DNA from: Phyllobates terribilis | Lineage: Eukaryota | DNA length: 64,000 bases | NCBI RefSeq assembly: GCF_046119375.1 | Contig: NW_027362763.1 | Span: 548,948,001-549,012,000, forward strand | Direction of reading: 5' to 3' | Shown here: in pieces, positions 201 through 47,319 of the stretch | Numbering within the stretch: position 1 is the first letter of the stretch | How the letters are laid out: every line of letters begins with the position of its first letter | The notes under the pieces: model-generated | What the model was told of the DNA's origin: nothing | Databases searched by the model: none | What the model saw: the letters and a program-made list of their open reading frames with translations, nothing else | Position numbers and translations under genes: made by a program

Positions 201-369
201 CAAACAAAGTACATTTAATAAATAGATCTTGGAATAAAAACAAGATCTAAAATTGGATGTGTTAAAAAAAAATATTCCTGTGTTGAGATAAAATTTATAA
301 ATGTGCCCCTGCTACAGGTGCATCTCACTAAATTAGAATATCATCAAAAAGTGAATTTATTTCAGTTCT

Positions 370-761
370 GCTGCTGAGCCGCCGGGTGTCTGGTGGGGCC
401 AGGAGTCCTGCAGTCTCCTGCCCTCCGGATTTAGCTGCCAGGCCTTCAGTTCCCGCACAACCACGGACTCCGGTGTCCGATTCCCTTGCGCTTCTCTCTG
501 GGGCGAGCTTCTTCACAGCTCCCTTCCCCAGGTCCTTCCTCGTCACTCTCCTGTCTCCAACTCTCCTTCAATTAACTCTTTCTAACCCCGCCTCCACATT
601 TCCAGTTTGAAGGGGAGGAGCTCCCCTATCTGGTCTGGAGCCAGGAAAGTGTTGGATGCTTGTACACCTGATTAGGGGACCCCTCCTTGCTTCTAGGTAT
701 GGCATCACCCCCTGTGAGGGAGGCAATGCCACTGTGGCAATCGGACCCCTGGGGTGCCACA
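370..761 (-). mobile_element. Truncated LTR (same family as 762-2109, 10857-12125, 45966-47214)
   Basis: Ends ...GGCAATCGGACCCCTGGGGTGCCACA (761), homologous to ...GCAACCGAACCCTCGGGGCGCTACA (12125) and ...GACTGAACCCTCAGGGGCGCCACA (47214). The other end is lost. Confidence 0.7.
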
Positions 762-2109
762 ACTGCATCTCAGCCAGAGGTGTGGTACCCCACTCTCGGA
801 TAAAGAGGGAGCACTACCCGGGACCCATACACCCACATCCAACACCACATCACTCCAGTAAGGAAGGGCGAGATTTATCCTGAGGGAGAGCACAGTCCCT
901 GTCCCTGTCTGGAGAAGGGAACTAGGTAGAGGAGGTGGGTGGAGGAAGTAGTTTAGGGGAGCACACAAGGAAGGACTGAAGGCAGAGAGTGACAGTTAGT
1001 GATGTGGGTCGCATGACAGACAGTATAAAAAGACAGGGAGAAACATCTAGAAGTGACCAGTGAGTGAGGACCATTGAAGAGTAGGGTCCAGACAGAGTGA
1101 GGACCCATTCAGTGGGGCCCAGTGAGTGAGGACCGTTGAGGAGTAGGGTCCAGACAGAATGAGGGCCCAGTCAGAGGGGCCCAGTGAGTGAGGACAGTTG
1201 AAGAGTAGGGTCCAGACAGAGTGAGGGCCCAGTCAGACTGGCCCAGTAGGAGAGAGAACGAGAGGAGCGCGGGATTCAGAGAAGGGCTCCAGAGACAGAG
1301 AAGGGATCTTAGTGGCACAGGAAGTGCGGAGTCCACCCGTGTGCCCGAATTCACGCCGACCGAAGTCGGAAGAAGGGATCAGGTCACAGTAGGGGACCGG
1401 CCCCAGACTAGTGGAGGACTGCAAGACTCAGCTAGCAAACCAGAGGCTGCGGTGTCTCTAAGTTCCGTAGCCAAAACCACACACATTCACTGAAAAGGTG
1501 GCCATATAGGACCAAGGGCACAGAGAGGACGTCGCCCGACAAGGCCCGCGGCCACTGGCTCGGGACACTGTGTGTGAGGCGCAGGACAGGAGGGCGAGAG
1601 CCAGCGCAGAGAGAGACGACCCGGGAAAGGTACACAAGAAGGGGGTCCTGATCAAGTGCACCCAAGTTATCTGAGAGTTGGCTGGATCACTTCCCTGAAG
1701 GACACAGGACTTGGTGGGCTGTTATAACCTGCTGGCTGTTGTAACCTGGAACATCATAAGAACTGTGAGTAAAAACTTGAAGACTGCACCCCGCTGTGTC
1801 CTTGCATTAATTGCTGCGTCACCTGCCTTGCACTACACAAACAACAAAGCTACCTCTTTAACTGCCCTGGGGCCTAGCTGTTACCCGTGGAGAGCTGAAC
1901 CATCTCTGCTGCGGCACCAACGGCCCCAGTGGATCTGAACAGCAGCGGCGGCCACCTATAGCCGCATACCACGGGTGGCGTCACGAAACTTTATCCCCAA
2001 AACTTTATTCCCCTCTGTTATTGACAACCCGGGGCCACGCCACCGTGACTATCCTAAAAGAACCGACCGGCCAGGCGCTGAGTACTCCACGGCCCCAGGG
2101 GGCGCGTCA
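762..2109 (+). mobile_element. Solo LTR (~1.35 kb, first ~35 nt missing), Gypsy/ERV-type
   Basis: Starts ACTGCATCTCAGCCAGAGGTGTGG, matching the family sequence just inside its terminus. TATAAAA box near 1025, GTGAGTAAA polyA-like signal near 1765, ends GGGGCGCGTCA. Confidence 0.75.
1059..1245 (+). repeat. Three ~62-bp tandem repeats inside the LTR
   Basis: CAGTGAGTGAGGAC..TTGA.GAGTAGGGTCCAGACAGA.TGAGG.CCCA.TCAG..GG.CC repeated three times. Confidence 0.85.
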
Positions 2110-3169
2110 ATTATATAGAGTCATTACAAACAGAGTGATCTATTTCAAGTGTTTATTTCTGTTAATGTTGATGATTATGGCTTGCAGCCAATGAAAACAC
2201 AAAAGTCATTATCTCAGTAAATTAAAATAATTAACAAGAAACACCTGCAAAGGTTTCCTAAGCATTTAAAAAGGTCCCTTAGTCTGTTTCAGTAGGCTCC
2301 ACAATCATGGGGAAGACTGCTGACTTGACAGATGTCCAGAAGGCAGTCATTGGCACACTCCACAAGGTCCCAGAGTTCCAATTTTCATTTTGAAATCAAT
2401 GTCCCAGAGTCTGGAGGAAGAGTGGAGAGGCTACAATCCAAGCTGCTTGAGGTCTAGTGTGACGCTTCCACAATCAGTGATGGCTTGGGGAGACATGTCA
2501 TCTGCTGGTGTAGGTCCACTATGTTTTATCAAGACCAAAGTTAGCGCAGCCGTCTACAAGGAAATTTTAGAGCACTTCATGCTTTCCTCTGCCAACAATC
2601 TTTATGGAGATGGAAATTTCATTTTCCAGCAGGACTTGGCACCTGTCCACACTGCCAGCAGTGCCACAAGCTGATCGCCTCCATGCCACGCCGCATTGAT
2701 GTAATAATTAATGCAAAAGGAGCCCCAACCAAGTATTGAGTACATTTACTGAACATACATTTCAGTAGGCCAACATTTCAGATTTTAAAAACTATTTTCA
2801 AGCTGTTGTTATAAAGTATTCTAATTTACTGAGATAATGACTTTTGTGTTTTCATTGGCTGTAAGCCATAATCATCAACATTAACAGAAATAAACACTTG
2901 AAATGGATCACTCTGTTTGTAATGACTCTATATAATATATGAGTTTCACTTTTTGTATTGAAGAACTGAAATAAATTATGGTAGCTTTTTGATGATATTC
3001 TAATTTAGTAAGATGCACCTGTATGTGCTGGGTACTGGCTGTGTCTCACCATGTAGGAACATGGTCTGGTCATACCACAGCTCCTGGCCAGGAAAGGAAG
3101 AAAAAGAGAGTATATAGAGAACAGCATGGTTTCACTGCTGCTGCTTTCTGTGAGGTAAAACATGCTTAA

Positions 3170-3512: not shown

Positions 3513-3727
3513 TTAATCTGAAGCTAGACATACCAATTTGCAATCGTGCAGACAGACTCTAATTCATACTGCTAGGACATTATTATAATGACATGTTCTC
3601 TTTAAATCCTTATTATATCCTCCTGCAAAATAAATAAAAGTTTACTAATTATTTATATTATAACCAAACATTTTAATATTCATGTTTTAAAGAGACATGA
3701 AAATCAGTCAGTGTATCAAGTTATATA

Positions 3728-5349
3728 CAGTACAGACCAAAAGTTTGGACACACCTTCACATTTAAAGATTTTTCTGTCTTTTCATGACTATGAAAATTG
3801 TACATTCACACTGAAGGCATCAAAACTATGAATTAACACATGTGGAATTATATACTTAACAAAAAAGTGTGAAACAACTGAAAATATGTCTTATATTCTA
3901 GGTTCTTCAAAGGAGCCACCTTTTGCTTTGATGACTGCTTTGCACACTCTTGGCATTATCTTGATGAGCTTCAAGAGGTAGTCACTGGAAATGGTCTTCC
4001 AACAATCTTGAAGGAGTTCCCAGAGCTGCTTAGCACTTGTTGGCCCTTTTGCCTTCACTCTGCGGTCCAGCTCACCACAAACCATCTCGATTGGGTTCAG
4101 GTCTGGTGACTGTGGAGGCCAGGTCATCTGGCATAGCACCCCATCACTCTCCCTCTTGGTCAAATAGCCCTTACACAGCCTGGAGGTGTGTTTGGGGTCA
4201 TTGTCCTGTTGAAAAATAAATGATGGTTCAACTAAACACAAACCGGATGGAATAGCATGCCGCTGAAAGATGCTGTGATAGCCATGCTGGTTCAGTATGC
4301 CTTCAATTTTGAATAAATCCCCAACAGTGTCACCAGCAAAGCACCCCCACACCATCACACCTCCTCCTCCATGCTTCACAGTGGGAACCAGGCATGTAGA
4401 ATCCATCCGTTCACCTTTTCTACGTCGCACAAACACATGGTGGTTGGAACCAAAGATCTCAAATTTGGACTCATCAGACCAAAGCACAGATTTCCACTGG
4501 TCTAATGTCCATTCCTTGTGTTCTTTAGCCCAAATAAGTCTCTTCTGTTGTTGCATGCTGTGGTTTCCTAGCAGCTATTTTACCATGAAGACCTGCTGCA
4601 CAAAGTCTCCTCTTAACAGTTGTTGTAGAGATGTGTCTGCTGCTAGAACTCTGTGTGCCATTGACCTGGTCTCTAATCTGAGCTGCTGTTAACCTGCGAT
4701 TTCTGAGGCTGGTGACTCGGATAAACTTATCCTCAGAAGCAGAGGTGACTCTTGGTCTTCCTTTTCTGGGGCGGTCCTCATGTGAGCCAGTTTCTCTGTA
4801 GCGCTTGATGGTTTTTGCAACTGCACTTGGGGACACTTTCAAAGTTTTCCCAATTTTTCGCACTGACTGACCTTCATTTCTTAAAGTAATGATGGCCACT
4901 CGTTTTTCTTTACTTAGCTGCTTTTTTCTTGCCATAATACAAATTCTAACAGTCGATTCAGTAGGACTATCAGCTGTGTATCCACCAGACTTCTGCACAA
5001 CACAACTGATGGTCCCAACCCCATTTATAAGGCAAGAAATCCCACTTATTAAACCTGACAGGGCACACCTGTGAAGTGAAAACCATTTCCGGTGACTACC
5101 TCTTGAAGCTCATCAGGAGAATGCCAAGAGTGTGCAAAGCAGTCATCAAAGCAAAAGGTGGCTACTTTGAAGAACCTAGAATATAAGACATATTTTCAGT
5201 TGTTTCACACTTTTTTGTTGAGTATATAATTCCACATGTGTTAATTCATAGTTTTGATGCCTTCAGTGTGAATGTACAATTTTCATAGTCATGAAAATGC
5301 AGAAAAATCTTTAAATGAGAAGGTGTGTCCAAACTTTTGGTCTGTACTG
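3728..5349 (-). mobile_element. Tc1-superfamily DD38E (Intruder-type) transposon, copy 1
   Basis: TA|CAGTACAGACCAAAAGTTTGGACACACC ... GGTGTGTCCAAACTTTTGGTCTGTACTG|TA. TIRs 3728-3996 and 5082-5349. Transposase on the minus strand. Confidence 0.95.
3891..4935 (-). pseudogene. DD38E transposase, frameshifted near 4550
   Basis: MARKKQLSKEKR...GRPR (paired-like DNA-binding domain). WSDESK, QQDN and SPDLNPIE motifs, with 38 residues between the second D and the E. A ~10-nt deletion after ARKP relative to copy 2 splits ORFs 4525..4998 and 3891..4556. Confidence 0.92.
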
Positions 5350-5882
5350 TATGTTTAAAACACAATGTGGGAACTGAGGAAAATGAAGCTAAAAGAAAAT
5401 TTTAATAGTTCCTAATATTGATTGTGTCACATTTCTTCATAACCCTTTATTAATATAACTCCATATTAGATCAGGTTTGTAGTTTTAAGGTAACTTACAT
5501 TAAATAGGATGATTACATATTTCTTTGTCTCCGTATCTGAAATAATAAAATCATTATTTCATTGAAATGAATTCAGTGTTATTACCTAAAGTGTTCTTTC
5601 AGCAAACCGGCTACCTGATACTTTAATGTTTAATACCTAGTCACCAAGATTAAAAAAAGGCATTTTGTGTCATAAAATAGGAATCTTTGGGGAAGGAATT
5701 ACAAAAGTACATACTGTTCTGTTAACTAGAATAACCCTGGGTGCAGTACACTTTCCATCATTTTATCTTATTCAAACTGCAGCTTAAAAATTAATATTTA
5801 CTTTTTAGGCATGCCAAATGCAATGTTTCAAGGGTCCTAGAGAATCTAGTCAGCAATCAAATGCTCTAAATATAACTTTTAA

Positions 5883-6316
5883 CCCCTTTACCACCTTGGG
5901 TTTTTCTGTTTTTGCGTTTTCGTTTTTTGCTCCCATTCTTCCCAGAGAAATAACTTTTTTATTTTTCCATCAATATGGCCATGTGAGGGCTTATTTTTTG
6001 CGGGATGAGTTGTACTTTGGAATGCCACCATTGCTTTTACCATATCTTGCATTGGAAAATGGGAAAAAAATTCCAAGTGCGGTGAAATTGTAAAAAAAGT
6101 GCAATTCCACAACTGTTTTTTGTTTTTTATCATGCTCACTAAATGCTAAAACTGACCTGCCATTATGATTTCCCAGGTCATTACGAGTTTGTAGATACCA
6201 AACATGTATAGGTTCTTTTTTATTTTTATTTTTTACTCCGAGACCAGTAACGTCTCCATTTATCGGGATCTGGGGCCGGATGAGGTCTTATTTTTTGCGT
6301 GCCGAGCTGACATTTC
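5883..6316 (+). mobile_element. piggyBac-like non-autonomous element, one-ended fragment
   Basis: TTAA|CCCCTTTACCACC terminus, followed by T-rich sequence resembling an arm of the 18311-22293 element read on the opposite strand. Confidence 0.55.
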
Positions 6317-6639
6317 TGAAGGCTCCAGACGTTGGTGGGGCAATGTCTTGGAGGTTTGGGGGTGAGGGGGCAGACATTCTTAATGTCTACCTGTTTGGGC
6401 AAGATTGCTCTTGTCATGAGCGAATTAAGGTTATCTTGTTATAAGTGAATGGTTGATATTTATTATTTATTTATTTATTAAAGAAAGTTTAATATATTTG
6501 GTATTCATATTTTAATGGAAATAAAATAACCCTTAATAAAGCTCCATGGCTATTTTGCTCCACTGACATCTGAGTGCATTATTTACTTAACATATAGAGT
6601 AAGTTGTTGGGTTCTATGTTGCCATGATGAGTCCACCAA

Positions 6640-7800
6640 CCCACCCCATTGCCTCCTACCCAGTATGATGCCACCACATGCCATACGAAAGCTCTCATGA
6701 ACCCCTCACACAGTATGAAGGCTCCTACATGGTATGATGGCCCTCACAGCCCCTCATACATTATGATGTCCCCACAGCCACCCACCTCACACACACAGTA
6801 TGATAACCCCACAGCCCCCCACAAAGTTTGATGCTCCCACAGGCCTGTCACAGTCTGATGGCTCTTTCACAAAATGATACTCCCACACGCTATGATGGGT
6901 CTCACAGACTCACACACAGTATGATATCATCATAGCCCCCCACACAATATGATGGCCCCACAACCCTCCTTACAGTATGATGGCCCCATAACCTCCACCC
7001 CCACACATAGTATGATTGGACCCACAACCTGCCCCACTGCCTCATACACAGAATGATGCCACCACAAACTACAACACAGTATGTTGGCCACCACTCACAA
7101 TATGAAGGCTCCCACAGCCCCTCACTCAGTATGATGGGCACCAGCCGTGTCACCAGACACCAGCTGTCCTGTGACAGTGGGCCTGGGAAAGGCTCTGTCA
7201 AAGTCCCACTTCCATTTACTGGGAGCTAGGTGAAAAGTATTCCCAGCCCTCAAGGGCTCGCCTAGCTGGGCAGCTTGTGACAAGTGCGTCTGTGGCTGCG
7301 CCTTTGCTGGTTTGGTGTCAGTCTTGGTGGGTCCCACTGCACAGCGCATAACACCCACACAGTATGATGGCTCCCCAACTATGATTGCCCCCACAGCTGC
7401 TCACACAGTTTGATGTTCCCATAGCCCCCCACACAGTATGATGCTCTCACAGGCCCCACCACTGTATAATGCCTCCACAGTACCCACAGAGTATGAAGGC
7501 TTTCCCACAGAATAATTCCCCAAACAGTATGATGGGTCTCAAAGCCTCACGCACAGTATGATATCACCATAGCCCCTCCACACAGTATGATGGCTCCACA
7601 GCTCCCCACCTCCACACAAAATTTGATTTAGACCCACAACCCACCCCACTGCCTCATGCACACACAATATGATGCCACCACAAACTACAACACAGTAAGA
7701 TGGCCTTCTAATTATGATAGCCCCCAGAGCTCTGAACACAGCATGATGACTCCCACACAGTATAACAGTCCCCATAGCACCGACACAGTATGCTGCTTCC
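6640..7800 (+). repeat. Degenerate ~20-26-bp minisatellite (CCCCACACAGTATGATG core)
   Basis: Dozens of imperfect CCCC(A)CACA(C)AGTATGATG units, interrupted by a unique segment at ~7143-7348. Confidence 0.8.
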
Positions 7801-8475
7801 ACAGGCCGCTAACGAATCCACGAGTTCCATAAAAGGATGCTGTTGCAATTGAGACACTGGATGAGAAGGAAGGCCCTGCGCTTTTCAGCACCAGACTCCC
7901 AATTCGGGAATCACACCTTTCACGTTGTCTGCTTCTATTAGTGTGCCACTGATCCCAGATCAGAAGAAGGAAGTCTCGCAAAGCTGTCAAAATAGTGATG
8001 ACAATCCCAGACTGGCCAAAGGGTCAGAGCTTTAATCACCAAATTATAGAGGGATTTAAATATACAGTACAGACCAAAAGTTTGGACACACCTCATTTAA
8101 AGATTTTTCTGTATTTTCATGACTATGAAAATTGTACATTCACACTGAAGGCATCAAAACTATGAATTAACACATGTGGAATTATATACTTAACAAAAAA
8201 GTGTGAAACAACTGAAAATATGTCTTATATTCTAGGTTCTTCAAAGTAGCCACCTTTTGTTTTGATGACTGCTTTGCACACTCTTGGCATTCTCTTTATG
8301 AGCTTCAAGAGGTAGTCACCAGAAATGGTTTTCACTTCACAGGTGTGCCCTGTCAGGTTTAATAAGTGGGATTTCTTGCCTTATAAATGGGGTTGGGACC
8401 ATCAGTGGTGTTGTGCAGAAGTCTGGTGGATACACAGCTGATAGTCGTACTGAATCGACTGTTAGAATTTGTATT

Positions 8476-10328
8476 ATGGCAAGAAAAAAGCAGCTAAGTA
8501 AAGAAAAACGAGTGGCCATCATTACTTTAAGAAATGAAGGTCAGTCAGTGCGAAAAATTGGGAAAACTTTGAAAGTGTCCCCAAGTGCAGTTGCAAAAAC
8601 CATCAAGCGCTACAAAGAAACTGGCTCACATGAGGACCGCCCCAGGAAAGGAAGACCAAGAGTCGCCTCTGCTTCTGAGGATAAGTTTATCCGAGTCACC
8701 AGCCTCAGAAATTGCGGGTTAACAGCAGCTCAGATTAGAGACCAGGTCAATGCCACACAGAGTTCTAGCAGCAGACACATCTCTTCAACAACTGTTAAGA
8801 GGAGACTTTGTGCAGCTGGCCTTCATGGTAAAATAGCTGCTAGGAAACCACTGCTAAGGACAGGCAACAAGCAGAAGAGACTTGTTTGGGCTAAAGAACA
8901 CAAGGAATGAACATTAGACCAGTGGAAATCTGTGCTTTGGTCTGATGAGTCCAAATTTGAGATCTTTGGTTCCAACCACCGTGTCTTTGTGCGATGCAGA
9001 AAAGGTGAACGGCTGGACTCTACATGCCTGGTTCCCACCGTGAAGCATGGAGGAGGAGGTGTGATGGTGTGGGGGTGCTTAGCTGGTGACACTGTTGGGG
9101 ATTTATTCAAAATTGAAGGCATACTGAAGCAGCATGGCTACCACAGTGTAGCATCGGCGTCTCTGCCCCCTGCCAGGCAGAGACACCGTCCCCCTTACCG
9201 TCGCGGTCCTGCTCCAGCGTCTTCCGGCCTCCATGCAGCTGCTGCTGGTGCACGCAGGTTCCCTGGCTCTGTACTTAGGGGCCACGCGCACCGTCGTAAA
9301 ACGTCCCCGGCCAATCACCGGAGGGCTTTCCCTATAAGAGGCACCTCCTCCAATATGGAGGTGCCTGTGCAAGGTTGTTGCTTTGTGATTCTTACTTTGC
9401 TTCAGCCCCCAGGTCCTCTGCAAGTCAGTCCTGTTCGCCAGTCTGATCTTCTGCTCAGTCCGCTAGCCTGACTTCTCTTCTGCCCGACAGTCTGTCTACC
9501 GTCCAGTTCAACAGTCTGTCTATGGACTCTGCCTGCCTGCTTACCTGGAAGCACCCACCTGTTACCTGCCGTGCCTGCCTGCCCATTTACCTGGAAGCAC
9601 CAGCCAGCTACCGGTTGTGCCGCCAGCTTGCCTACCCGGAACACTCGCCTGACTATCTGCCTAATCAGCCTGCTTGTCTACCTGGACCACCCGTCAGCCT
9701 TCCATCCGAAGCTCATCCGCTGTACCGGTCAGTTCCTGCCTTCTGACCCGTGGGAGTCACCTGCTCTCATACAAGGTTGGTCCCAGAGTGGCACCTGGTC
9801 CCTCTGCTCAGTTCCTCCCTGGTTCACGGAGTCGATTGAGCCGCCGTGTAACCTTGGTCGGACCGATTTGATACTTAGTCACGCCCCTCTGGCCTCTCCT
9901 TGCACCGCAGCACAGAGGTTCCACCACCCGGATCCGTAACACGCAGCATCTTGCAGCGGCATGCTATTCCATCCGGTTTGCGTTTAGTTGGACCATCATT
10001 TATTTTTCAACAGGACAATAACCCCAAACACACCTCCAGGCTGTGTAAGGGCTATTTGACCAAGAAGGAGAGTGATAGGGTGCTACGCCAGATGACCTGG
10101 CCTCCACATTCACCAGACCTGAACCCAATCGAGATGGTTTGGGGTGAGCTGTACCGCACAGTGAAGGCAAAAGGGCCAACAAGTGCTAAGCATCTCTGGG
10201 AACTCCTTCAAGATTGTTGGAAGACCATTTCCGGTGACTACCTCTTGAAGCTCATCAGGAGAATGCCAAGAGTGTGCAAAGCAGTCATCAAAGCAAAAGG
10301 TGGCTACTTTGAAGAACCTAGAATATAA
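8476..10328 (+). pseudogene. DD38E transposase with a nonsense codon (TGA 8908-8910, W in copy 1) and an LTR insertion at 9147-9941
   Basis: ORFs 8413..8910 and 8932.. are in the same frame. The C-terminus (QQDN-x-NPIE ... GYFEEPRI*) resumes after the insertion in ORF 9900..10328. Confidence 0.92.
9147..9941 (+). mobile_element. Solo LTR, 795 bp
   Basis: TGTAGC...GTAACA termini, 5-bp TSD CACAG/CGCAG. CCAAT then CCTATAAG promoter-like motifs near 9310-9340. Cleanly interrupts the transposase codons GYHS|ILQR. Confidence 0.9.
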
Positions 10329-10856
10329 GACACATTTTCAGTTGTTTCACACTTTTTTGTTAAGTATATAATTCCACATGTGTTAATTCATAGTTTTGAT
10401 GCCTTCAGTGTGAATGTACAATTTTCATAGTCATGAAAATACAGAAAAATCTTTAAATGAGAAGGTGTGTCCAAACTTTTGGTCTGTACTGTATACAACT
10501 GAGAAATATGTTTGTTTGGTCTCTTTACTTCAAGAAGTTGCCCAGTTTCTCATTATTTTTTGAGTTGTCTTTATTAAGGTTGTCAGTGATGCAACACTAA
10601 AATAAAAGTGACTGCTTTACTGGCCACCCCAGCTCCTAAGCTTTAAAATTCTGTCCAGTCTTAAAGGGGTCTTCCGAAACTAACATTGATTTTAATCCTA
10701 AATGTATGTCTATTTAACGTAATAATATAATAGCTTTTCTGACATACTTTATTGAAAAAGTCCCTATCGTTCCCTGTTAACTCTTTCTAACTGCTTAATT
10801 GTTTTTTTTCCTACTTCCAGATTGATGACATTTCGTTTGAGAATCCCTAGTGCTTG

Positions 10857-12125
10857 TGACTCACCTCCTGGGCCGTGGGGTACCCGGAACCGGGCCTTCT
10901 GGTGTACGGTGCTGATGGGGGTAGTAGTGGCAACCCGATCCCGTGGCTCAGGGTGGTCAGACCAAATGCTGGCAGTCTATTTATCAGTGTTATGAATGTC
11001 CGACTACGCCACCCGTGGATTGCGGTCAGGGATAACCGCCGCTGCAAGGCAAACCACTGAGGCTGGTGTTGGTGTGCAGCACAGGGTTAGGATAACGCCC
11101 CACGGGAAGAGTGTAGCCTCAGGGCAGTGTAGGTGGATGCTGGGGGTGATGGTGCAGGCGCAGCATAAATCACACAGAGTCCAATGGTGCAATCCAGGGT
11201 TTTTACTCACAGTTGTTATCCATGTCACTTCTGTCAGCAATGACTGCCCAAGCCGTGCTGCGTCCACCAGGTGAGGAGCTCAGTCAACCCCCAGGCAATT
11301 CAGGAGTATGGCACAGGACACCTTTCTGTCCTTTCTCTGGCCTCTCGTGCCCCACCAGTGACCAAACTTCTGTCCAGCTACCACGGACCGTGTCGGGCAA
11401 GCGTTGGCCTCCGCTTCCCGCTATCCTATATGGTGCCTTCCTAGCAGGTTTGGCGGTCGGTCACACCAATAAATGATCACGACCTCCGGTTCTTGGCTGA
11501 GGGATGATTTACCTCCACCAACTTGGGAATCCGGTACCCTTCCACAGCCTGACCCTTCACCCGATATAACTCGGGTTTGCAACGGTTGCTGTCCGTTCTG
11601 CTCTCTTAGGGTCCCTTCTGCCTTCCTGTTTCTGGAGCCTTTCTACTCCTCTGTCTCTCCTCTTTCCTTCCTTCTCTTCTCCTCTCTGGCCCCGGCCTTC
11701 TCTCTAGGCCTGCCTCGTGGAGCTGAGCTCAGGCTGAGCCTCGGCTCCCTGTCAGCTCTCACTGACTGTACTTCACTACTCTTCTTCTGAACTCCATGAC
11801 TAAGATGGCTCCCCTTTTATCTGCTTCTCTGTGTCTGAGCTCAGGTGACCTGCACCCAATGAGCTCCTTCCTATGCTCCAGAAACCGTCCCCTTCTGCTC
11901 CTACATCACTGGGTTCTCTCCCCCCTCCCCACTCCAGCCAGGGACATGGTCAGTTGTGCCTGCATAAATGGGAGCACTGTCGAGCTGTCCCCCGGAAATG
12001 GGGTGAGTGTGTGTATGCAGCTAACTGAGCCCTGGTCCACACTCCATCCTTACCTGGGAGTGGAATATCACACCTCTGGGTGAGGTGCAATACCCCTGTA
12101 GCAACCGAACCCTCGGGGCGCTACA
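10857..12125 (-). mobile_element. Solo LTR, 1269 bp (PBS-containing family)
   Basis: TGAC...CTACA termini on + (TG...CA), 4-bp TSD CTTG/TTTG. GATAAAAGG and GTGAGTAAA motifs on the minus strand. Confidence 0.85.
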
Positions 12126-35652: not shown

Positions 35653-36294
35653 TTAAGTGCAAAACAAGTTGTTTTTCACAGATAGACCCGTACCCATTGT
35701 AGTCTATGGGGTTGTTCACATGTCCATGTTTTTGGGACCCTCAATGTAAGAAAAAAAATCAACCATATCCAGCTAGGATCTGAGGAAACAGTGACTGTGA
35801 AGCGAAAAGCGCACAATAGGGTAAACTCTAATAAAAGAGATAATAAAATCAATAGCTCTTCTCACTGTGGGTGGTTGTGTGAAGAAGACATATAAAGACC
35901 TATAAAGGTTCAAATAGCCAGTTGTCGCTGTCCCATGGGAGGGGGAACAATCCGCCAGATGCAAATTACCACAACAGGAAAAAAACACATTTAAAAATTG
36001 GCTGCACTGGTGGAAATAAGTTGCTTACTGCTGTATTCTTCGAAGGTTCTTTGTTATCCACTACGCGTTTCAATGCTGTACTGGCATCTTTATCAATTAT
36101 CAAAAACTGACAGGTTTTCCAGTTTTGATCTGAGTCATAGATCAATATGGCACATTCAAGTCTATGTGTCCGTGATCTGATTTGCCTCTTAACCTTGTCC
36201 GTTTTTCACTGACTGTTTGCCAGGAGAAGCCTGAAAAACCTCCAGCGGTTCTTTTGTATACAAGAAAAACTGATGAAACTCATAAAAACTGATG

Positions 36295-36700
36295 GAGCTG
36301 TGGGCCAATTATACAGTGTATGGAAGAGCTGTGGAGACATCACACTGTGTATAGGGGAGCTGTGGACCCTTCATACTGTGAATACGGAGCTGTGGGGACA
36401 TCATACTGTATAGGCAGGAGTTGTGGGCCCATCACATAGTGTATAAAGGAGCTTTGGGACCATCATACTGTCTGTAAGAAAGCTGTAGGGACACAGTACA
36501 GTGTATAGGGGAGCTGTGGGACCATTATATTGTGTATAGAGGAGCTGTCCGGGCATTAGACTGTGTAGAGTGCAGCTATGGGCACATTATACTGTGTATA
36601 GGATAGCTGTGAGTCCATTATACTGTGTATAGGGGAGCTGTAGGCCCATCATACTGTGTATAGAGGAACTGTGCATGGGGGGACTCAGGGGACATTATTA
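36295..36700 (+). repeat. Degenerate ~30-bp minisatellite
   Basis: GGGGAGCTGTGGGNCCATCATACTGTGTATA units. Confidence 0.75.
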
Positions 36701-37569
36701 CTGCAAATGGTGTGACACATAGGTCAATATTACTGTACATGGGGGACTCAGTAGACATTATTTAAAGTTAAATGGGTATTTAATATGCTTTATTGCTATA
36801 GGGGCATTGAGTTTATTGTGACCATCAAGGGTACATTACTACTTTCAAGGGGGCAAAATGTTGTTACTGTCTTCTAGAGCACTTGCACAGGGCATTGATA
36901 TTTTTTAGGCTACAATTTTACACATCTAAAGGGCACAGGTCCATTAACTGAAACAAATATGGCAGCAGCAGGCCTAGCATAGGAGTGGCAGCAGGGTGAG
37001 GTGTTTGTGCAGGTTGGGAATAGATGGAGACGGTACTGGAAATGTGAGCCAAATGTTTAAACTCTGCAGACAAGTCATTGCTGGAAGAAGTTGTCATGGC
37101 GGTCTTAGCCAGATGGAGAACATGGGAAAAGTGAAGAACTGCATCAAAAGGAACATCAGCTGTAAGTCACTATATATAACAGCACTGTAATTTGTTAAGA
37201 TGTTCTGCAGGACTGGTATCTACTACTATATTGTCACCATATGGGGGTTATATCGCCGATACAGTTACACTCTGGGGCAAAGCAGGGAGACCCGATGTCC
37301 CTGCACTGCCACCCGACTGCTATGTGGCCCTTGAGCAGGAGGGTAGGGGGCTCCCAGTGCCTGCACCGAGCCCCCAACCCGTCACCGCAAGTTCAATGAT
37401 GAAAGAGAGAGTGTGATGCTCCCTCTCCCATCAATCTGATATCACTAACGCAGACACTGTCAGCGTGAGCGATGACATCATCACTTGGCGCCCACTGTCC
37501 TGAGATGTGCTGGCACACGGAGCAGCGGGGGAACGAGGAGGAGAGGTGAGTATTGAATTTTTTTTATGG

Positions 37570-37722
37570 GGGTGCATTATACTATATAGAGTCTGCCTAT
37601 GGGGGTGCATTATACTATATAGAGTCTGCCTATGGGCAATGCATTATACTATATAGAGAATGCCTATGGGCAGTGCATTATACTATATAGAGTCTGCCTA
37701 TGGGCAGTGCATTACACTATAT
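37570..37722 (+). repeat. ~31-bp minisatellite, ~5 copies
   Basis: GCATTATACTATATAGAGTCTGCCTATGGG units. Confidence 0.85.
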
Positions 37723-37731
37723 ACAGTAGAG

Positions 37732-40667
37732 CAGGGGTCTCAAACTCAGCTAAGTATATGGGCCACACATAGAAAAATGTGAATTTAAAGGGCCGCATTC
37801 TTTGCAGGATGATATGAAATTTTTAATGATACCATATTGTTTTTCTTATACACCTTTGGGATCCTTGTTTGAACATTTGTGGCTTTTTTATTTCATTCTT
37901 TTAAATGCCATTCATTTTATGGGCTATGGTACAGTTTTATCGTTTTTAAAAGTTTACAGTATTACAGTTTTAAAATTTTTATTTCCTTTTTGTGTCCCCT
38001 AATTGGCCACAAACAGTGATTTTTTTCTTCAATTAGCACCATATAGTAATTCTGACCAACTTGTTATAGTAATGTCCCCATCTTGTAGTAATGTCTCCCA
38101 TCTTGGTGCCCATTTTGTAGTAATGTGCCCATCCCGGTCCCCATCTTGTAGTAATGTGCCCGTTCCTGTCTCCATCTTGTAGTAATGTGCCCATCCTGGG
38201 CCCCATCTTGTAGTAATGTGCCCATCCTGGTCCTCATCTTGTAGTAATGTCCCCATCTTGTAGTAATGTCCCCCATCTAGATCCCCATCTTGTAGTAATG
38301 TGCCCATCCTGGTCTCCATCTTGTACTAATGTGCCCATCCTGGTCCCCGTCTTGAAGTAATGTGCCCATCCTGGTTCCCATCTTGTAGTAAAGTGCCCAT
38401 CCTGGTCACCATCTTGTAGCAATGTGCCCATTCTGGTCCCTATCTTGTAGCAATGTACCCATCCTGGTCCCCATTTTGTAATAATGTGCCCATCCTGGTC
38501 CCCATCTTGTAGTAATGTTCCCATCCTGGTCCCCATCTTATAGTAATGTGCCCATCCTGGTCCCCATCTTGTACTAATGTCCCCCATCTTGGTCCCCATC
38601 ATGTAGTAATGTGCCCATCCCGGTCCCCATTTTGTAGTAATGTGCCCATCCCAGTCCCCATCTTCTAGTAATGTGCCCATCCCAGTCCCCATCTTGTAGT
38701 AATGTGCCCATCCCTGTCCCCATCTTGTAGTAATGTGCCCATCCTGGTCCCCATCTTGTAGTAATGTGCCCATCCTGTAGTAATGTGCCCATCTTGTAGT
38801 AATGTCACCCATCTTGGTCCCCATCTTGTAGTAATGTGCCCATCCTGGTCCCCATCTTATAGTAATGTGCCCATCCTGGTCCCCATCTTGAAGTAATGTG
38901 CCAATCCTGGTCCCCATCTTGTAGTAAAGTGCCCATCCTGGTCCCCATCTTGTAGTAATGTGCCCATCCTGGTCCCCATCTTGCAGTAATGTGCCCATCC
39001 TGATCCCCATGTTGTAGTAATGTGCCCATCCTGGTCCCCGTCTTGTAGTAATGTAGTAATGTTCCCATCCTGGTCCCCATCTTGTAGTAATGTGCCCATC
39101 CTGTGCCCATCTTGTAGTAATGTGCCCATCCTGGTCCCCATCTTGTAGTAATGTGCCCATCCTGGTCCCCATCTTGTAGTAATGTGCCCATCCTGATCCC
39201 CATGTTGTAGTAATGTGCCCATCCTGGTCCCCATCTTGTAGTAATGTAGTAATGTTCCCATCCTGGTCCCCATCTTGTAGTAATGTGCCCATCCTGATCC
39301 CCATGTTGTAGTAATGTGCCCATCCTGGTCCCCATCTTGTAGTAATGTGCCCATCCTGGTTCCCATCTTGTAGTAATGTGCCCATCCTGATCCCCATGTT
39401 GTAATAATGTGCCCATCCTGGTCACCATCTTGTAGTAATGTAGCAATGTTCCCGTCCTGGTCCCCATCTTGTAGTAATGTGCCCATCCTGATCCCCATGT
39501 TGTAGTAATGTGCCCATCCTGGTCCCCATCTTGTAGTAATGTAGTAATGTTCCTATCCTGGTCCCCATCTTGTAGTAATGTGCCCATCCTGGTGCCCATC
39601 TTGTAGTAATGTGCCCATCCTGGTCCCCATCTTGTAGTAATGTTCCCATTCTGGTCCCCATCTTATAGTAATGTGCCCATCCTGGTCCCCATCTTGTAGT
39701 AATGTGCCCATCCTGGTCCCCATCTAGTACGAATGTTCCCCATCTTGGTCCCCATCATGTAGTAATGTGCCCATCCCGGTCCCCATCTTGTAGTAACGTG
39801 CCCATCCCGGTCCCCATCTTGTAGTAATGTGCCCATCCCGGACCCCATCTTGTAGTAATGTACCCATCCTTGTGCCCTTCTTGTAGTAATGTGCCCATCC
39901 TGGTCCCCATCTTGTAGTAATGTGCCCATCCTGGTCCCCATCTTGTACTAATGATCCCCATCTTGGTCCCCATCATGTAGTAATGTGCCCATCCCGGTCC
40001 CCATCTTGTAGTAACGTGCCCATCCCGGTCCCCATCTTGTAGTAATGTGGCCATCCCGGTCCCCATCTTGTAGTAACGTGCCCATCCTGGTCCCCATCTT
40101 GTAGTAATGTGCCCATCCTGGTCCCCATCTTGTAGTAATGTACCCATCCTTGTGCCCATCTTGTAGTAATGTGCCCATCCTGGTCCCCATCTTGTACTAA
40201 TGATCCCCATCTTGCTCCCCATCATGTAGTAATGTGCCCATCCCGGTCCCCATCTTGTAGTAACGTGCCCATCCTAGTCCCCATCTTGTAGTAATGTGCC
40301 CATCCTGGTCCCCATCTTGTAGTAATGTGCCCCATCCTGGTCCCCATCTTGTAGTAATGTGCCCATCCTGGTCCCCATCTTGTAGTAATGTACCCATCCT
40401 TGTGCCCATCTTGTAGTAATGTGCCCATCCTGGTCCCCATCTTGTAGTAATGGCCCATCCTGGTCCCCATCTTGTAGTAATGTTCCAATCCTGTTCCCCA
40501 TCTTGTAGTAATGGCCCACCCTGGTCCCTAACTTGTAGAACATTCAACTGATAATAATCACTGACTTTGACGGCCCTCAGGACCAGGCTGCAATCATTAC
40601 GGGGGTTCCAATGCCTGCGGGCTCATGGGCACCATGCGGCCCTCGTGCCGCATGTTTGAGACCCCTA
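37732..40667. mobile_element. Non-autonomous hAT-type element carrying a 31-bp minisatellite
   Basis: CAGGGGTCTCAAAC ... GTTTGAGACCCCTA inverted termini. The 8-bp flanks (CAGTAGAG / TTCTAGGA) match only partly. A second right end lies at 42450. Confidence 0.7.
38060..40545 (+). repeat. 31-bp minisatellite, block 1
   Basis: CATCTTGTAGTAATGTGCCCATCCTGGTCCC units with deletion variants. Confidence 0.97.
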
Positions 40668-40973
40668 TTCTAGGACAAAAAATCCCCACTTAACATTTAA
40701 TAATCACCTGAGTGCCCCCTGTATAGGTCCCCTATATACAGTATGATGGGCCTGGTGGCTGGTGATTGGCTACAAAGTAAAATCGGTACATGATGGGTTA
40801 CTGCTGGACCTTTTGGGTACAAGTCTTTGTACAGATGTCATTTTAGTGCATTGTAAGAATATAGTGGGTTAATGCTGCAAGCTTTGTTCTCAGTCCTTTT
40901 ATTCGCCAGTTCCTACTCTCTCCTCATTATCTCATTTGGCCATGCATGCTGTCGTTTATTGTGTCCACAAATC

Positions 40974-42756
40974 CTGGTCCCCATCTTGTAGTAATGTGCC
41001 CATCCTGTAGTAATGTGCCCATCTTGTAGTAATGTCACCCATCTTGGTCCCCATCTTGTAGTAATGTGCCCATCCTGGTCCCCATCTTATGGTAATGTGC
41101 CCATCCTGGTCCCCATCTTGAAGTAATGTGCCAATCCTGGTCCCCATCTTGTAGTAAAGTGCCCATCCTGGTCCCCATCTTGTAGTAATGTGCCCATCCT
41201 GATCCCCATGTTGTAGTAATGTGCCCATCCTGGTCCCCGTCTTGTAGTAATGTAGTAATGTTCCCATCCTGGTCCCCATCTTGTAGTAATGTGCCCATCC
41301 TGTGCCCATCTTGTAGTAATGTGCCCATCCTGGTCCCTTGTAGTAATGTGCCCATCCTGGTCCCCATCTTGTAGTAATGTGCCCATCCTGATCCCCATGT
41401 TGTAGTAATGTGCCCATCCTGGTCCCCATCTTGTAGTAATGTAGTAATGTTCCCATCCTGGTCTCCATCTTGTAGTAATGTGCCCATCCTGATCCCCATG
41501 TTGTAGTAATGTGCCCATCCTGGTCCCCATCTTGTAGTAATGTAGTAATGTTCCCATCCTGGTCCCCATCTTGTAGTAATGTGCCCATCCTGGTGCCCAT
41601 CTTGTAGTAATGTGCCCATCCTGGTCCCCATCTTGTAGTAATGTTCCCATTCTGGTCCCCATCTTATAGTAATGTGCCCATCCTGGTCCCCATCTTGTAG
41701 TAATGTGCCCATCCTGGTCCCCATCTAGTACTAATGTTCCCCATCTTGGTCCCCATCATGTAGTAATGTGCCCATCCCGGTCCCCATCTTGTAGTAACGT
41801 GCCCATCCCGATCCCCATCTTGTAGTAATGTGCCCATCCCGGACCCCATCTTGTAGTAATGTACCCATCCTTGTGCCCTTCTTGTAGTAATGTGCCCATC
41901 CTGGTCCCCATCTTGTAGTAATGTGCCCATCCTGGTCCCCATCTTGTACTAATGATCCCCATCTTGGTCCCCATCATGTAGTAATGTGCCCATCCTGGTC
42001 CCCATCTTGTAGTAACGTGCCCATCCCGGTCCCCATCTTGTAGTAATGTGCCCATCCTGGTCCCCATCTTGTAGTAATGTGCCCATCCTGGTCCCCATCT
42101 TGTAGTAATGTGCCCCATCCTGGTCCCCATCTTGTAGTAATGTGCCCATCCTGGTCCCCATCTTGTAGTAATGTGCCCATCCTTGTGCCCATCTTGTAGT
42201 AATGTGCCCATCCTGGTCCCCATCTTGTAGTAATGGCCCATCCTGGTCCCCATCTTGTAGTAATGTTCCAATCCTGGTCCCCATCTTGTAGTAATGGCCC
42301 ACCCTGGTCCCTAACTTGTAGAACATTCAACTGATAATAATCACTGACTTTGACGGCCCTCAGGACCAGGCTGCAATCATTACGGGGGCTCCAATGCCTG
42401 CGGGCTCATGGGCACCATGCGGCCCTCGTGCCGCATGTTTGAGACCCCTATTCTAGGACAAAAAATCCCCACTTAACATTTAATAATCACCTGAGTGCCC
42501 CCTGTATAGGTCCCCTATATACAGTATGATGGGCCTGGTGGCTGGTGATTGGCTACAAAGTAAAATCGGTACATGATGGGTTACTGCTGGACCTTTTGGG
42601 TACAAGTCTTTGTACAGATGTCATTTTAGTGCATTGTAAGAATATAGTGGGTTAATGCTGCAAGCTTTGTTCTCAGTCCTTTTATTCGCCAGTTCCTACT
42701 CTCTCCTCATTATCTCATTTGGCCATGCATGCTGTCCTTTATTGTGTCCACAAATC
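40974..42756 (+). repeat. Tandem duplication: minisatellite block 2 (40974-42325) plus a second copy of the unique segment 40541-40973
   Basis: 40541-40973 recurs at 42324-42756 (offset 1783) with only a few substitutions. Confidence 0.95.
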
Positions 42757-43179
42757 TGGATGAATGTCTGCATGACAAACAATTCTGCTTTCTGATTTTT
42801 TTGGAGCAAGTGAGGACACGGTACAGGTTGCTATATCAGGATTCAATCATTTTCATGGTTACATTTCTCATATAAATGTAATCCTTTGCAGCCTTTTAGT
42901 TATGAGCTTGTCTGGTTAAGGAGATTCTCTAAGCCATAAATCAGGGTGAGCAGCACAGTCCAGAGCTAATAATGCTGAAAAGTTTTACTTCGCAAACGGC
43001 ACGTGCAGGGGCGTACATAGAAATCATGGGGCCCCATAGCAGAAGCTCGAATTGCCCCCCCCCCCCCAAAAAAAAATAAAAAAAAAAATATTTGTTTGTG
43101 TCACAGAGGAGCAGATCTCACTACTTTCCAGCCTTTACAGAGTAATTTTCCTCCTGCTGAAGTCCTAGATTCCTCTTTC

Positions 43180-43750
43180 ATTGCCCCATATAGTATGATG
43201 CCAATAAAAGTGCCCCCTAAACACAGTTTGATACCCCCATGGTGCATTCCTCCACATTAGCCCCCACATCCACAGTATAATGACCCTATTGTACCCCACT
43301 TCAACTCCCAAGGCAAAGTATGGTGACCCTAACACAGTATAATCCCCCAACTGTGACTCGCACACAGCCCTCCATACAGTATAATGGCCCGCACTAGCCC
43401 TCCAAACAGTATGATGGCCCCCAAACAAACCTTCACACTGTATTATTGCTTTCATACAGTATAATGGCCCCCAACATAGCCCTCAAAATATTATAATGGC
43501 CCCACATAGCCTTCCATATGGTATAATACGCCACCCATAATCCTCCATATAGTATAATGTGCCCCCCATAATCCTCCATATAGTATAATGCACCTTCCAT
43601 AATCCTCCATATATTATAATGAACTTCCCATGGTTTCCATAGAATATAATGCACTCCCCATAGTGCTCCATACATTATATTACACACCCCATAGGGTAAA
43701 ATGCAGCCCCCATATAGTATAATGCACCCCACAGTCCTGCAGTATTATGG
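43180..43750 (+). repeat. Degenerate ~22-bp minisatellite (CCCCAYAYAGTATAATG)
   Basis: Repeated AGTATAATG + CCCC units. Confidence 0.75.
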
Positions 43751-43924
43751 GCACCACATACTCACTGATTTAAACATACCGTATATTTTAAATAAGCCAA
43801 CCCAAGTATAAGCTGAGGCCCCTAATTTTACCACAGAAAAACTGGGAAAACGTATTGACTCGAGTATAAGCCTAGGGTGGGAAATGCAGCAGCTACTGGT
43901 ATATTTACCCATTTGGGCATGTAT

Positions 43925-44710
43925 GGTACCCCTCATCCACCAATCCTGGTACGTATGGCATCCCTCATCCCCCAATCCTGTTACGTATGGCCACATCATC
44001 CACCAATCCTGGTATATATGGCACCCCTCATCCCCCAATCCTGGTACGTATGGCACCTCTCATCCCCTAATCCTGGTACGCATGGCACCCCTCATCCCCA
44101 ATACTGGTATGCATGGCCCCCTCATCACACAATACTGGTACGCATGGCCCCCTCATCCCTAATCCTGGTATGCTTTGCCCCCTCTTCCCCCAATCCTGGT
44201 ATGCATGGCCTCCTCCTCCCCCAATCCTGGTATGCATGGCCCCCTCATCCCCCAATCCTGGTATGCATGGCCTCTTCATCCCACAATCCTGGTATGCATG
44301 GCCCCCTCATCCCAAATCCTGGTATGAATGGCCCCCTCAACCCCAATCCTGGTATGCATGTCCCCCTCAGCCCCCCAATCCTGGTATGCATGGCCTCCTC
44401 CTCCCCCAATCCTGGTATGCATGGCCCCCTCATCCCCCCAGTCCTGGTATGCATGGCCCCCTCATCCCCCCAATCCTGGTATGCATGGCCCCCTCATCTC
44501 CCAATCCTGGTATGTATGGCCTCCTCATCCCCCAATCCTGGTATGTGATGCCCCGTCATCCCCCAATCCTGGCATGCATGGCCCCTTCATCCCCAATCCT
44601 GGTATGTGTGGCCCCCCTCATTCCCCAATCCTGGTATGCATGGCCACCTCATCCCCCATTCCTGGTATGTGTGGCCTCCTCATCCCCCAATCTTGGTATG
44701 TGTGTCCCAA
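43925..44710 (+). repeat. ~30-bp minisatellite downstream of a Tc1/mariner-type MITE end (CCGTATAT...TCGAGTATAAGCC near 43779-43870)
   Basis: CCCCTCATCCCCCAATCCTGGTATGCATGG units. Confidence 0.9.
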
Positions 44711-45852: not shown

Positions 45853-47319
45853 GGCCATGGCCCCACTATCAGAATTTGGTCAGTATTCGGTCACTATTTT
45901 TTCTCAGGAGTGGGAGCCAAAACCAGGAGTGGGTGATCAATGCAGAATTGGTGACTTGTTTCTATTGACTCGCCCAGGGGGATATGGGGGACTCGGTATC
46001 CGGGCCTTTACCTTCTTTGTAGGATGTCACGGCAGTCGGCTCCCGGGCCCGTCCTCTGGGGTCACTCTTTAAAAGGGGGTTTGTTAACAGTTTTTGTCTC
46101 GTGACGCCACCTGTGGTTCCCGGTAATGAGTACCGGCGCTGCTGCAAACCTCCGTGGGTGATGGGATGGCAGCTCGGATGTTTCTGCTCCCCACAGGTGG
46201 AGCGAGCCCCCCCGGGGCAGTGTAGGTGCAGATGGTGATGCTGGGCGTTGCAGTGCAGGAGCGGTAGCATGGTGGAAATAACTGACAGAGACAGTGGAGT
46301 GCAGTCATCCGAGTTTACTCACAGTTCTTTAAAATTCCTTAGGTACACTGTCCAGGTGTCAGACTCCCGCGTCGCACTGCGTTTGCCAGGCAGGGGTTCA
46401 GCACTCCTTCAGGTATATTAGAAGCACTTAACAGAACCCCCTTTCTTTATGTTCCTTCCTTGACCGACTTCCCGTGCTGGGTCTTCTCCCTCCTGCCCTG
46501 CGCTCCCCCACACACAGTCCCGATCGGGTACTCTGAGATCCCTCTGGGCAACCTGGAGTTCTCGGATCTACTTGGTGCCCTTCACGGCGGCTAAGGTGAG
46601 GTTGTGGCAACTGCACCATGGAAGTGCAGAAGCCTCCGGTTTTTCCAGCCGAGACCTGGAGTAACACGGCTGGTCCAGGGACTGGTTCCCTTCTTGCGGC
46701 CTGATCCCTCTGACTCTTGGCAAATTCGGGCGTATGGGTGCCGTCCTGCACTCACCGTACCCCCTGGGATCCCTTCTGTTACCGGACCCTTCCTCCCTGA
46801 CTCCCCTCTGACTCCTGGACCTCTCTTACTAGGCCCCACTATGGAGCAGAGCTCCTGAAGAGACTCTGCTCCCCTCCTCTCCTCTCCTTACTACTCACTG
46901 ACTGAACTGAACTGAACTCCCTAACTAAGATGGCTTCCCTTTTTATATCTATTCTCTAAGTGCTCCCCTGTTCTACGTCCTCCACCCACCCCCACTACTG
47001 GTTCCCCCTCTCTTTGGTTCCCCCGACTCCAGCCAGGGACAGGGCAGCAGAAGAAGTGCATAATGCCCTTCCAGCCGGCCTGGAGTAGTGTAGTGTTGAG
47101 TGTAGGTGTTGGGGTCCCGGGGCAGTACTCCCTCCTTACCTGAGAGAAGGAGATGCCACACCTCTGGGTGAGGTGCAGTACCTCTGTGGTGACTGAACCC
47201 TCAGGGGCGCCACACTATTATACCTTTTCGCTGATTGTTCCTCACCTGGTTTTGGCTCCCACTCCTGAGAAAAAATACTGATCGAATACTGACCAGATAC
47301 TGATAGTGGGGCCATGGCC
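45853..47319. mobile_element. Harbinger-type MITE split by a solo LTR
   Basis: TTA|GGCCATGGCCCCACTATCAG...CTCAGGAGTGGGAGCCAAAACCAGG and its inverse ending ...GTGGGGCCATGGCC|TTA. TSD TTA. Confidence 0.85.
45966..47214 (-). mobile_element. Solo LTR, 1249 bp (PBS-containing family)
   Basis: TGAC...CCACA termini, perfect 4-bp TSD CTAT/CTAT. TATAAAAAG and GTGAGTAAA on the minus strand. Confidence 0.9.

Follow-up and report, generated by a model that had tools for sequence, protein, structure and literature searches.

Putative capture and opening of primer tRNA-Ser by two complementary sites within the LTRs of Ty3/Gypsy elements of Phyllobates terribilis

The opening of a primer tRNA and its placement on the primer-binding site (PBS) are usually ascribed to nucleocapsid protein together with short auxiliary contacts. 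The nearest precedent for part of the arrangement described below is FIV, where Miller et al. are said to have found in 2001 that the 5' end of tRNA(Lys3) pairs with a loop of U5; the FIV arrangement is not said to include a second site for the tRNA 3' end, unlike that of the present elements.

The remaining close systems are summarized as far as the available portions of the cited texts describe them. In HIV-1 a U5 element, the PAS, pairs with the T arm of the primer and must change along with the PBS for the primer to be switched (PMC11181671). Ty1 has an extended PBS and Ty3 a bipartite PBS (PMC3592414, PMC5371799), and Drosophila Gypsy has, near the 3' end of its RNA, a second site for another region of the tRNA that is dispensable for cDNA synthesis (PMC1635307). 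Gmr1-like elements place integrase (IN) upstream of reverse transcriptase (RT) (PMC3587641) and have a fused gag-pol (PMC11117352). The PNMA-ancestor metavirus combines a PNMA-type Gag with a dUTPase (PMC11011659) and is filed under Barthez (PMC3670739).

The window analysed here is a stretch of 64,000 nt of Phyllobates terribilis (NW_027362763.1, positions 548,948,001-549,012,000), and the genome searched for relatives of its LTRs spans 10.6 Gb; the evidence for the three-site arrangement comes from this one genome. We use "inner site" for the complement to the tRNA 3' end that lies inside the LTR, "third site" for the complement to the tRNA 5' end nearer the LTR terminus, and "outer PBS" for the canonical PBS beyond the 5' LTR.

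LTR copies in the window and the elements they represent

The window holds three solo LTRs, with these features (window positions, strand):

762..2109, plus: LTR copy 1, solo, Ser-CGA type, 5'-truncated and without a target-site duplication (TSD)
1768..1773, plus: putative poly(A) signal AGTAAA of copy 1, conserved (A(A/G)TAAA in full elements)
1948..1965, plus: small hairpin upstream of the inner site, copy 1 (two-sided changes in 5/6 pairs, 36 sequences)
1976..1987, plus: inner site of copy 1, complementary to the last 12 nt of tRNA-Ser(CGA), by host tRNA genes
2039..2049, plus: third site of copy 1, exact 11-nt complement of tRNA-Ser(CGA) nt 1-11 (-23.8 kcal/mol, shuffle p 0.005)
10857..12125, minus: LTR copy 2, solo, Ser-AGA/UGA type, TSD match 3/4 (CAAA/CAAG)
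10921..10931, minus: third site of copy 2, 10/11 complement of tRNA-Ser(AGA/UGA) nt 1-11 (-15.1 kcal/mol; p 0.12, alone not significant)
11000..11011, minus: inner site of copy 2, complementary to the last 12 nt of tRNA-Ser(AGA/UGA), by host tRNA genes
11022..11039, minus: upstream hairpin of copy 2, by covariation and folding
45966..47214, minus: LTR copy 3, solo, Ser-CGA type, perfect 4-bp TSD ATAG
46026..46035, minus: third site of copy 3, seven Watson-Crick matches to tRNA-Ser(CGA) nt 1-7, G-U-extendable, by duplex computation
46099..46109, minus: inner site of copy 3, complementary to the last 11 nt of tRNA-Ser(CGA), by tRNA-Ser match
46120..46136, minus: upstream hairpin of copy 3, by covariation and folding

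The first-pass annotation had placed the inner motif after CCAC(G/A)GG at 1976-1987, 11011-11000 and 46109-46099, and this is borne out together with its distances to the terminal TCA: the motifs end 122, 143 and 133 nt before it in copies 1-3, and a 16-nt context pattern of the inner site has three matches in the window, where 100 shuffles give a mean of 0.00. The 4-bp TSDs that it assigned to the two complete copies need one correction, copy 3 being perfect and copy 2 agreeing at only three of four positions. Copy 1 has lost ~35 nt at its 5' end, and its distal block is 12 nt shorter than that of its family, which puts the inner site at 134 nt from the end instead of 146.

LTR copy 1 contains a 62-bp tandem repeat in three copies (1057-1247) and lies inside one of two stretches of long inverted repeats (313-3023 and 3719-10500), which resemble nested Tc1-type DNA transposons. 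Several minisatellite arrays of 31-34 bp occupy 36294-44700 (the largest 38074-42321), and 95 copies of a 148-bp satellite with a higher-order period of 442 bp run from 49944 to 64000 and continue past the window end.

A tRNA gene search of the 64-kb window found none. Host tRNA genes were sought in the genome with a pattern built from the PBS, which gave 60 matches; the 30 inspected yielded six genes, called by ARAGORN as Ser(CGA) (L168), Ser(AGA) (L176, L181, L190) and Ser(TGA) (L177, L178). The inner motifs complement the 3' ends of these genes' products after CCA addition, so that the proposed complementarity to tRNA-Ser holds for host genes of all three anticodons.

We took the best 30 loci for each of the three window families (90 loci). 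Seven of these are 5' LTRs followed by an 18-nt PBS and 11 are 3' LTRs preceded by a polypurine tract (PPT). All three families have the canonical 18-nt PBS, 3-9 nt after the 5' LTR; in the seven 5' LTRs the spacer measures 3, 4-5 or 8 nt and the PBS is of the same isoacceptor type as the inner site. The first-pass annotation had proposed non-canonical replication with the PBS inside the LTR, and had itself named a canonical PBS outside the LTR as the observation that would speak against it; the proposal falls on that observation. Genome-wide, exact matches to TCA-N2-9-PBS number 65,797 for the AGA/UGA type and 6,689 for the CGA type (72,486 together), with none for the reversed control. The spacer from the LTR CA to the PBS is pyrimidine-rich, 3-9 nt long (the pattern permitted 2-9) and 8 nt in several CGA families (L102-L161). 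It compares with 2 nt at the PPT end, so that integrase would have to trim the two ends asymmetrically.

Sixty stretches were fetched, of which 59 could be anchored and 49 had both LTRs. The inner site is present in both LTRs of all 49, as had been supposed from the solo copies, and mapping of TSDs across copies found a perfect 4-bp TSD in 38 of the 41 elements with fixable ends. Insertion sites often have TG or TA before the 4-bp TSD and CA or TA after it (full elements L192-L291; an uncounted impression), suggesting a palindromic target preference.

The TG...CA LTRs, the PBS after the 5' LTR, the PPT before the 3' LTR and the short TSD are those of Ty3/Gypsy elements (Metaviridae), as is the Pol order PR-RT-RH-IN seen in L199, L194 and L209 (in L194 Pol, RT 392-551, RH 622-753, IN 892-1060). 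Autonomous copies carry gag and pol in ~5.9 kb between the LTRs, as separate overlapping ORFs in L192, L198, L199 and L209; gag encodes 335-378 aa and pol 1366-1389 aa, and with LTRs of ~1 kb the total is ~7.9 kb. We reject membership in Gmr1, to which the first-pass annotation had likened the arrangement, because RT precedes IN and gag and pol are unfused.

The PNMA domain PF14893 scores just over the cut-off in both Gag proteins scanned, and L209 Gag has a CCHC match. Between PR and RT, L209 has a match to dUTPase PF00692 (E 2.6e-4, under the cut-off), and the domain scan saw no dUTPase domain in L199 or L194 Pol. A PNMA-type Gag, together with a possible dUTPase, fits the PNMA-ancestor metavirus. 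Placed by domain content and sizes against published descriptions, the elements look like PNMA-progenitor (Barthez-like) Ty3/Gypsy elements, likely the lineage that was the source of the mammalian PNMA genes. The closest named Pol homologues are from frogs (80-81% identity over half of the query). A search of viral contigs for homologues gave no matches, and 77 metagenome loci were distant (30-43% identity), with a loose PBS-like match in one.

All 41 full elements have an A(A/G)TAAA at 324-392 nt from the LTR end, a position that suggests that the inner site is in U5. The antisense tRNA sites occur both in autonomous ~8-kb and in non-autonomous 3.5-5.5-kb elements. There are abundant, young non-autonomous members with ~2-2.6 kb between the LTRs, which are without pol and have a long ORF with a cold-shock domain at its end; the domain passes the Pfam cut-off in six of nine such ORFs scanned. 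Elements with the cold-shock ORF are:

L091, 4382-6517
L096, 2046-3485
L099, 1679-3487
L101
L195
L197

Joint switching of the three sites

The inner site repeats the PBS over 10-13 nt and lies ~145-180 nt from the outer PBS. It stands behind a covarying hairpin, ~10 nt upstream, of 6 bp with two-sided changes in five of the six pairs (36 sequences). The match is high over nt 1-10 in the AGA/UGA type (93-100%) and over nt 1-12 in the CGA type (86-100%, save for 66% at the CpG at nt 10); it collapses by nt 14-15, about the end of the acceptor strand, and drops to 0-7% at nt 15-16. The TGG matching the added CCA is retained, and the site is conserved where the adjoining linker is unalignable. We considered and rejected two other roles. 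Against a DNA-level factor site, the CRE-like CGTCA found in the CGA type is missing from the AGA/UGA type, which suggests that the switch follows the tRNA; a decoy for 3' tRNA fragments is disfavored, since the inner site would leave the fragment seed unmatched.

The third site, ~60-85 nt before the LTR end, complements the tRNA 5' end (nt 1-12). By duplex energies, nt 1-12 are the best-binding of all tRNA windows for both types, and over them the cognate tRNA is preferred to the other in 54 of 60 sequences; the site beats its shuffles (p < 0.05) in only 34 of 60. Median energies are -21.3 (CGA) and -16.2 (AGA/UGA) kcal/mol. The complement is exact over tRNA nt 1-11 in copy 1 and in 16 of 30 family-1 loci. 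Some CGA families have a mismatch, and in the main AGA/UGA families the site is split by a 2-5-nt bulge or mismatch (median p 0.07). A divergent AGA/UGA lineage (L165, L170, L182, L219) has 12 contiguous nt paired, with variation that is G-U-compatible.

The linker from the inner site to a predicted stem is mostly 30-55 nt long, with 8.6% G. Minimum-energy folds pair the last bases of the LTR with the 5' arm in most copies, and a long U5 stem set by hand has 75-90% of its cells paired, with register shifts between families. RNAalifold did not predict this stem-loop, and its stability is unremarkable, with median z of -0.33 and -0.21 (1.68, 0.34 and -0.10 for the window copies). A long U5 stem-loop ending at the LTR end is thus a prediction only.

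All three sites switch together between Ser(CGA) and Ser(AGA/UGA). Among 60 loci picked by their outer PBS alone, 58 keep the inner site (L103 and L158 have lost it through deletions), and in 58 of 58 it matches the outer type. Genome-wide, with decayed variants included, there are 66,927 pairs of inner and outer sites, and only 2 + 3 = 5 are discordant; in these five (L220-L222, L218-L219) the leader is that of a further, divergent family, and they look recombinant. A three-site tally of 150 records, in which the 90 family loci take their outer type from the family and the third site is typed by its diagnostic half, gave 130 concordant, 20 without a third-site call and none discordant. Matches to an inner site with a CGA-type third site number 22,438; among the first 100 listed, 96 have CGA-type inner sites, and the other four have GCCAC-TGT-GACTRC, a CGA-type third site extended to fit the AGA/UGA tRNA, which suggests a path of adaptation. 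In L221 and L222 the switch lies inside the PBS, at microhomology with the LTR end of the divergent family.

On a tree of the 420 nt upstream of the inner site (62 rows; L103, L158 and one duplicate left out), the AGA/UGA type needs two changes (bootstrap 2-3), so the large concordance count goes back to few independent switches. With all three sites inside 200 nt, recombination could transfer them jointly. The first-pass annotation had read the isoacceptor swap as selection for priming. Its first half is upheld to the extent that the switching of the inner motif suggests selection; its second is not, the traces of priming being at the outer site.

Traces of priming and the role of the inner site

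Priming is at the outer PBS, as seen from read-through traces. Of 30 loci inspected (L162-L191), 24 are element junctions in which the tRNA was copied beyond nt 18, for ~25-53 nt (the pattern itself requires 25 nt of tRNA copy); 20 of these junctions follow an LTR end, four are unclassified, and the inner context accounts for none. Only three loci have all 18 nt of the tRNA copied in the inner context, against ~72,000 outer ones. Across 49 LTR pairs, non-CpG divergence is 45/7,840 (0.57%) distal to the inner site and 299/43,943 (0.68%) proximal to it. With no distal excess, ordinary LTR regeneration accounts for the products, and the case for a non-canonical replication scheme lapses here too. 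On the strength of the same pairs we reject a heteroduplex model, by which a different template would routinely supply the distal block of the 5' LTR. A loose PBS-like 6-mer follows the 3' LTR in one of 49 elements. L182 reads from an LTR end into a tRNA copy and then an LTR start.

The reading we lean towards is that these are LTRs of standard-order Ty3/Gypsy elements in which the outer PBS primes and the two in-LTR sites capture and open the primer tRNA. Both sites, if in U5, would be present only at the RNA 5' end. The inner site would pair with the 3' acceptor strand of the tRNA plus NCCA (~11 nt) and the third site with the 5' acceptor strand (nt 1-12); the two pairings, which could form ~22 bp with the two acceptor-stem strands, would replace the 7-bp acceptor stem while the T arm stays closed. 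The G-poor linker of 30-55 nt and the predicted long stem-loop could bring the two sites together, after which the tRNA 3' end would move on to the outer PBS, which is longer and is where synthesis starts. Computed energies are -34 to -36 kcal/mol for the outer PBS, ~-21 for the inner site, -16 to -21 for the third site and ~-8.5 for the acceptor stem.

A fuller version we put forward tentatively, giving it rather less than an even chance: a relay in which a decoy PBS in U5 and a clamp on the tRNA 5' end open the acceptor stem and pass the tRNA to the true PBS, and in which, on the second packaged RNA, the tRNA may stay at the inner site or prime from it. If true, it would amount to a three-site device for loading the primer, and tens of thousands of genomic copies would record its co-evolution.

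A class of rearrangements bears on what the inner site costs and on whether it primes. A pattern of two full PBSs 110-175 nt apart is matched at 91 loci, ~0.13% of outer PBSs; we inspected 30 (L223-L252) and fetched 12 whole (L374-L385). Among the 30, the duplication begins at the LTR end by pattern in 26 and at a visibly mutated LTR end in three more; the sequence picks up exactly at inner position 19-20 in 16 and in the linker of another subfamily in several others, and L224 is a different rearrangement. In most, a second template has contributed a 5'-side duplicate of the distal LTR block. Seven of the 12 fetched elements have a matching 3' LTR, two have a downstream LTR nearer the extra block, and three are unassessable. 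In all seven assessable elements the 5' and 3' LTR blocks differ at 0-1 positions and the extra block at 2-29, which implies two templates in these events. Two duplication elements have a true PBS after the 3' LTR and look like tandem arrays. By the standard scheme, plus-strand strong-stop DNA would mis-land when its 18-nt tRNA copy pairs with the inner-site complement. Judged by the 91 loci that match this mis-landing pattern, the inner site appears costly, yet it is retained; the products would form a genomic record of reverse transcription across two different templates.

A possible objection is that the inner site is a true second primer site, where a tRNA is extended on one RNA of the packaged pair or else on the same RNA. 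We consider this unlikely, though it is the best of the alternatives. The seven duplication elements lend it some support, since extra blocks from a different template mean that minus strands do sometimes run through U5 to the inner site on the partner RNA. So do the three loci with a full copy in the inner context: in L215 the inner site carries the 18-nt tRNA copy in the 5' LTR and not in the 3' LTR, and in L216 and L217, which are without a 3' LTR within the 8.4 kb fetched, the inner context is joined to the leader via the 18-nt copy. DNA primed at the inner site would moreover lack the att end and rarely integrate, so that rarity in the genome does not equal frequency. Against this, all three loci are explicable by template switching between 11-12-nt repeats, LTR pairs are no more diverged distally than proximally, and the 60 loci selected by outer PBS do not conserve a CA ahead of the inner site, which also led us to reject an alternative att end there. 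Extension on the same RNA would shorten the long R-U5 copy, and the integrating right end would always be outer-primed.

Slightly less probable again is a fold switch without tRNA binding, in which the inner site pairs intramolecularly with half of the third site and so governs whether the true PBS is exposed or hidden. Self-complementarity of the tRNA acceptor stem does allow each third-site half (GCCAC; GACTAC or GTGAC) to pair with a portion of the inner or outer site, and in many families a C before GCCAC adds a pair with the inner site. However, the halves are ordered as the tRNA 5' end requires, the wrong order for one helix with a PBS copy, and the divergent lineage pairs 12 contiguous nt with the tRNA. 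The inner site, for its part, keeps its TGG and stops matching about where the acceptor strand ends.

We regard as improbable that the inner site is a functionless relic of an old LTR end or PBS that the tRNA copy occasionally overwrites and so keeps alike. These elements do have routes by which overwriting and LTR extension can occur, but what precedes the inner site is a covarying hairpin and not an LTR end, its length stays at 10-13 nt and not 18, and it is conserved beside an unalignable linker; the third site switches as well, which overwriting cannot bring about. Finally, the presence of the inner site in both LTRs is all that speaks for an in-LTR PBS as the sole PBS of Gmr1-like elements with non-canonical replication, a reading to which the canonical PBS, PPT and TSDs, RT before IN and read-through at the outer site leave next to no probability.

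Comparison with known systems

Our literature search, which had Repbase, the original Gmr1 and Barthez papers and supplements outside its scope, found no account of a three-site arrangement. A second site for the same tRNA 3' end together with a 5'-end complement is absent from the literature compared, so far as the available portions of those texts extend.

In the available text of the sources, Gmr1-like elements share with ours the Ty3/Gypsy superfamily and occurrence in frogs (PMC4131045), and differ in IN before RT and the fused gag-pol, both absent here. The likeness to Barthez is in the PNMA-type Gag and the separate gag and pol, with sizes that fit Barthez1/2 as given in the accessible part of PMC11117352; a dUTPase between PR and RT is no more than suggested, by the match in L209. 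The Barthez descriptions compared make no mention of tRNA sites in the LTR. The Helenus TRIM, as described in the available portion of PMC10886601, also has a tRNA-related sequence in its LTR and a PBS outside; there, however, it is a tRNA-derived promoter in an element of <1 kb, whereas we find short antisense sites in elements of 3.5-8 kb. A PBS-like motif in solo LTRs can mislead the annotation of LTR boundaries and of the PBS.

Ty1, Ty3 and Gypsy, as far as their accessible descriptions go, resemble the present elements in having more than one tRNA-binding segment and acceptor-strand sites of 10-11 nt. In them the additional segments are for other arms of the tRNA (and sit at the RNA 3' end in Ty3 and Gypsy), whereas the inner and outer sites here compete for the same tRNA 3' end. 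Nor do we find a bipartite PBS in the sense of another tRNA region bound at the RNA 3' end, the extra sites being downstream of the putative poly(A) signal and so apparently in U5. The RNA of these elements appears to carry a matching site for each of the two acceptor-stem strands, as well as a second site for the tRNA 3' end.

The likeness to the PAS of HIV-1 is a U5 element, upstream of the PBS, whose pairing lies outside the last 18 nt of the primer and which switches with the PBS; co-adaptation of such an element with the PBS is what we observe, given the apparent placement in U5. The PAS uses the T arm, whereas the elements described here use tRNA nt 1-12 plus a second copy of the PBS. 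Their natural primer switches, which involve all three sites, are a natural counterpart of the HIV experiment in which PBS and PAS are switched together.
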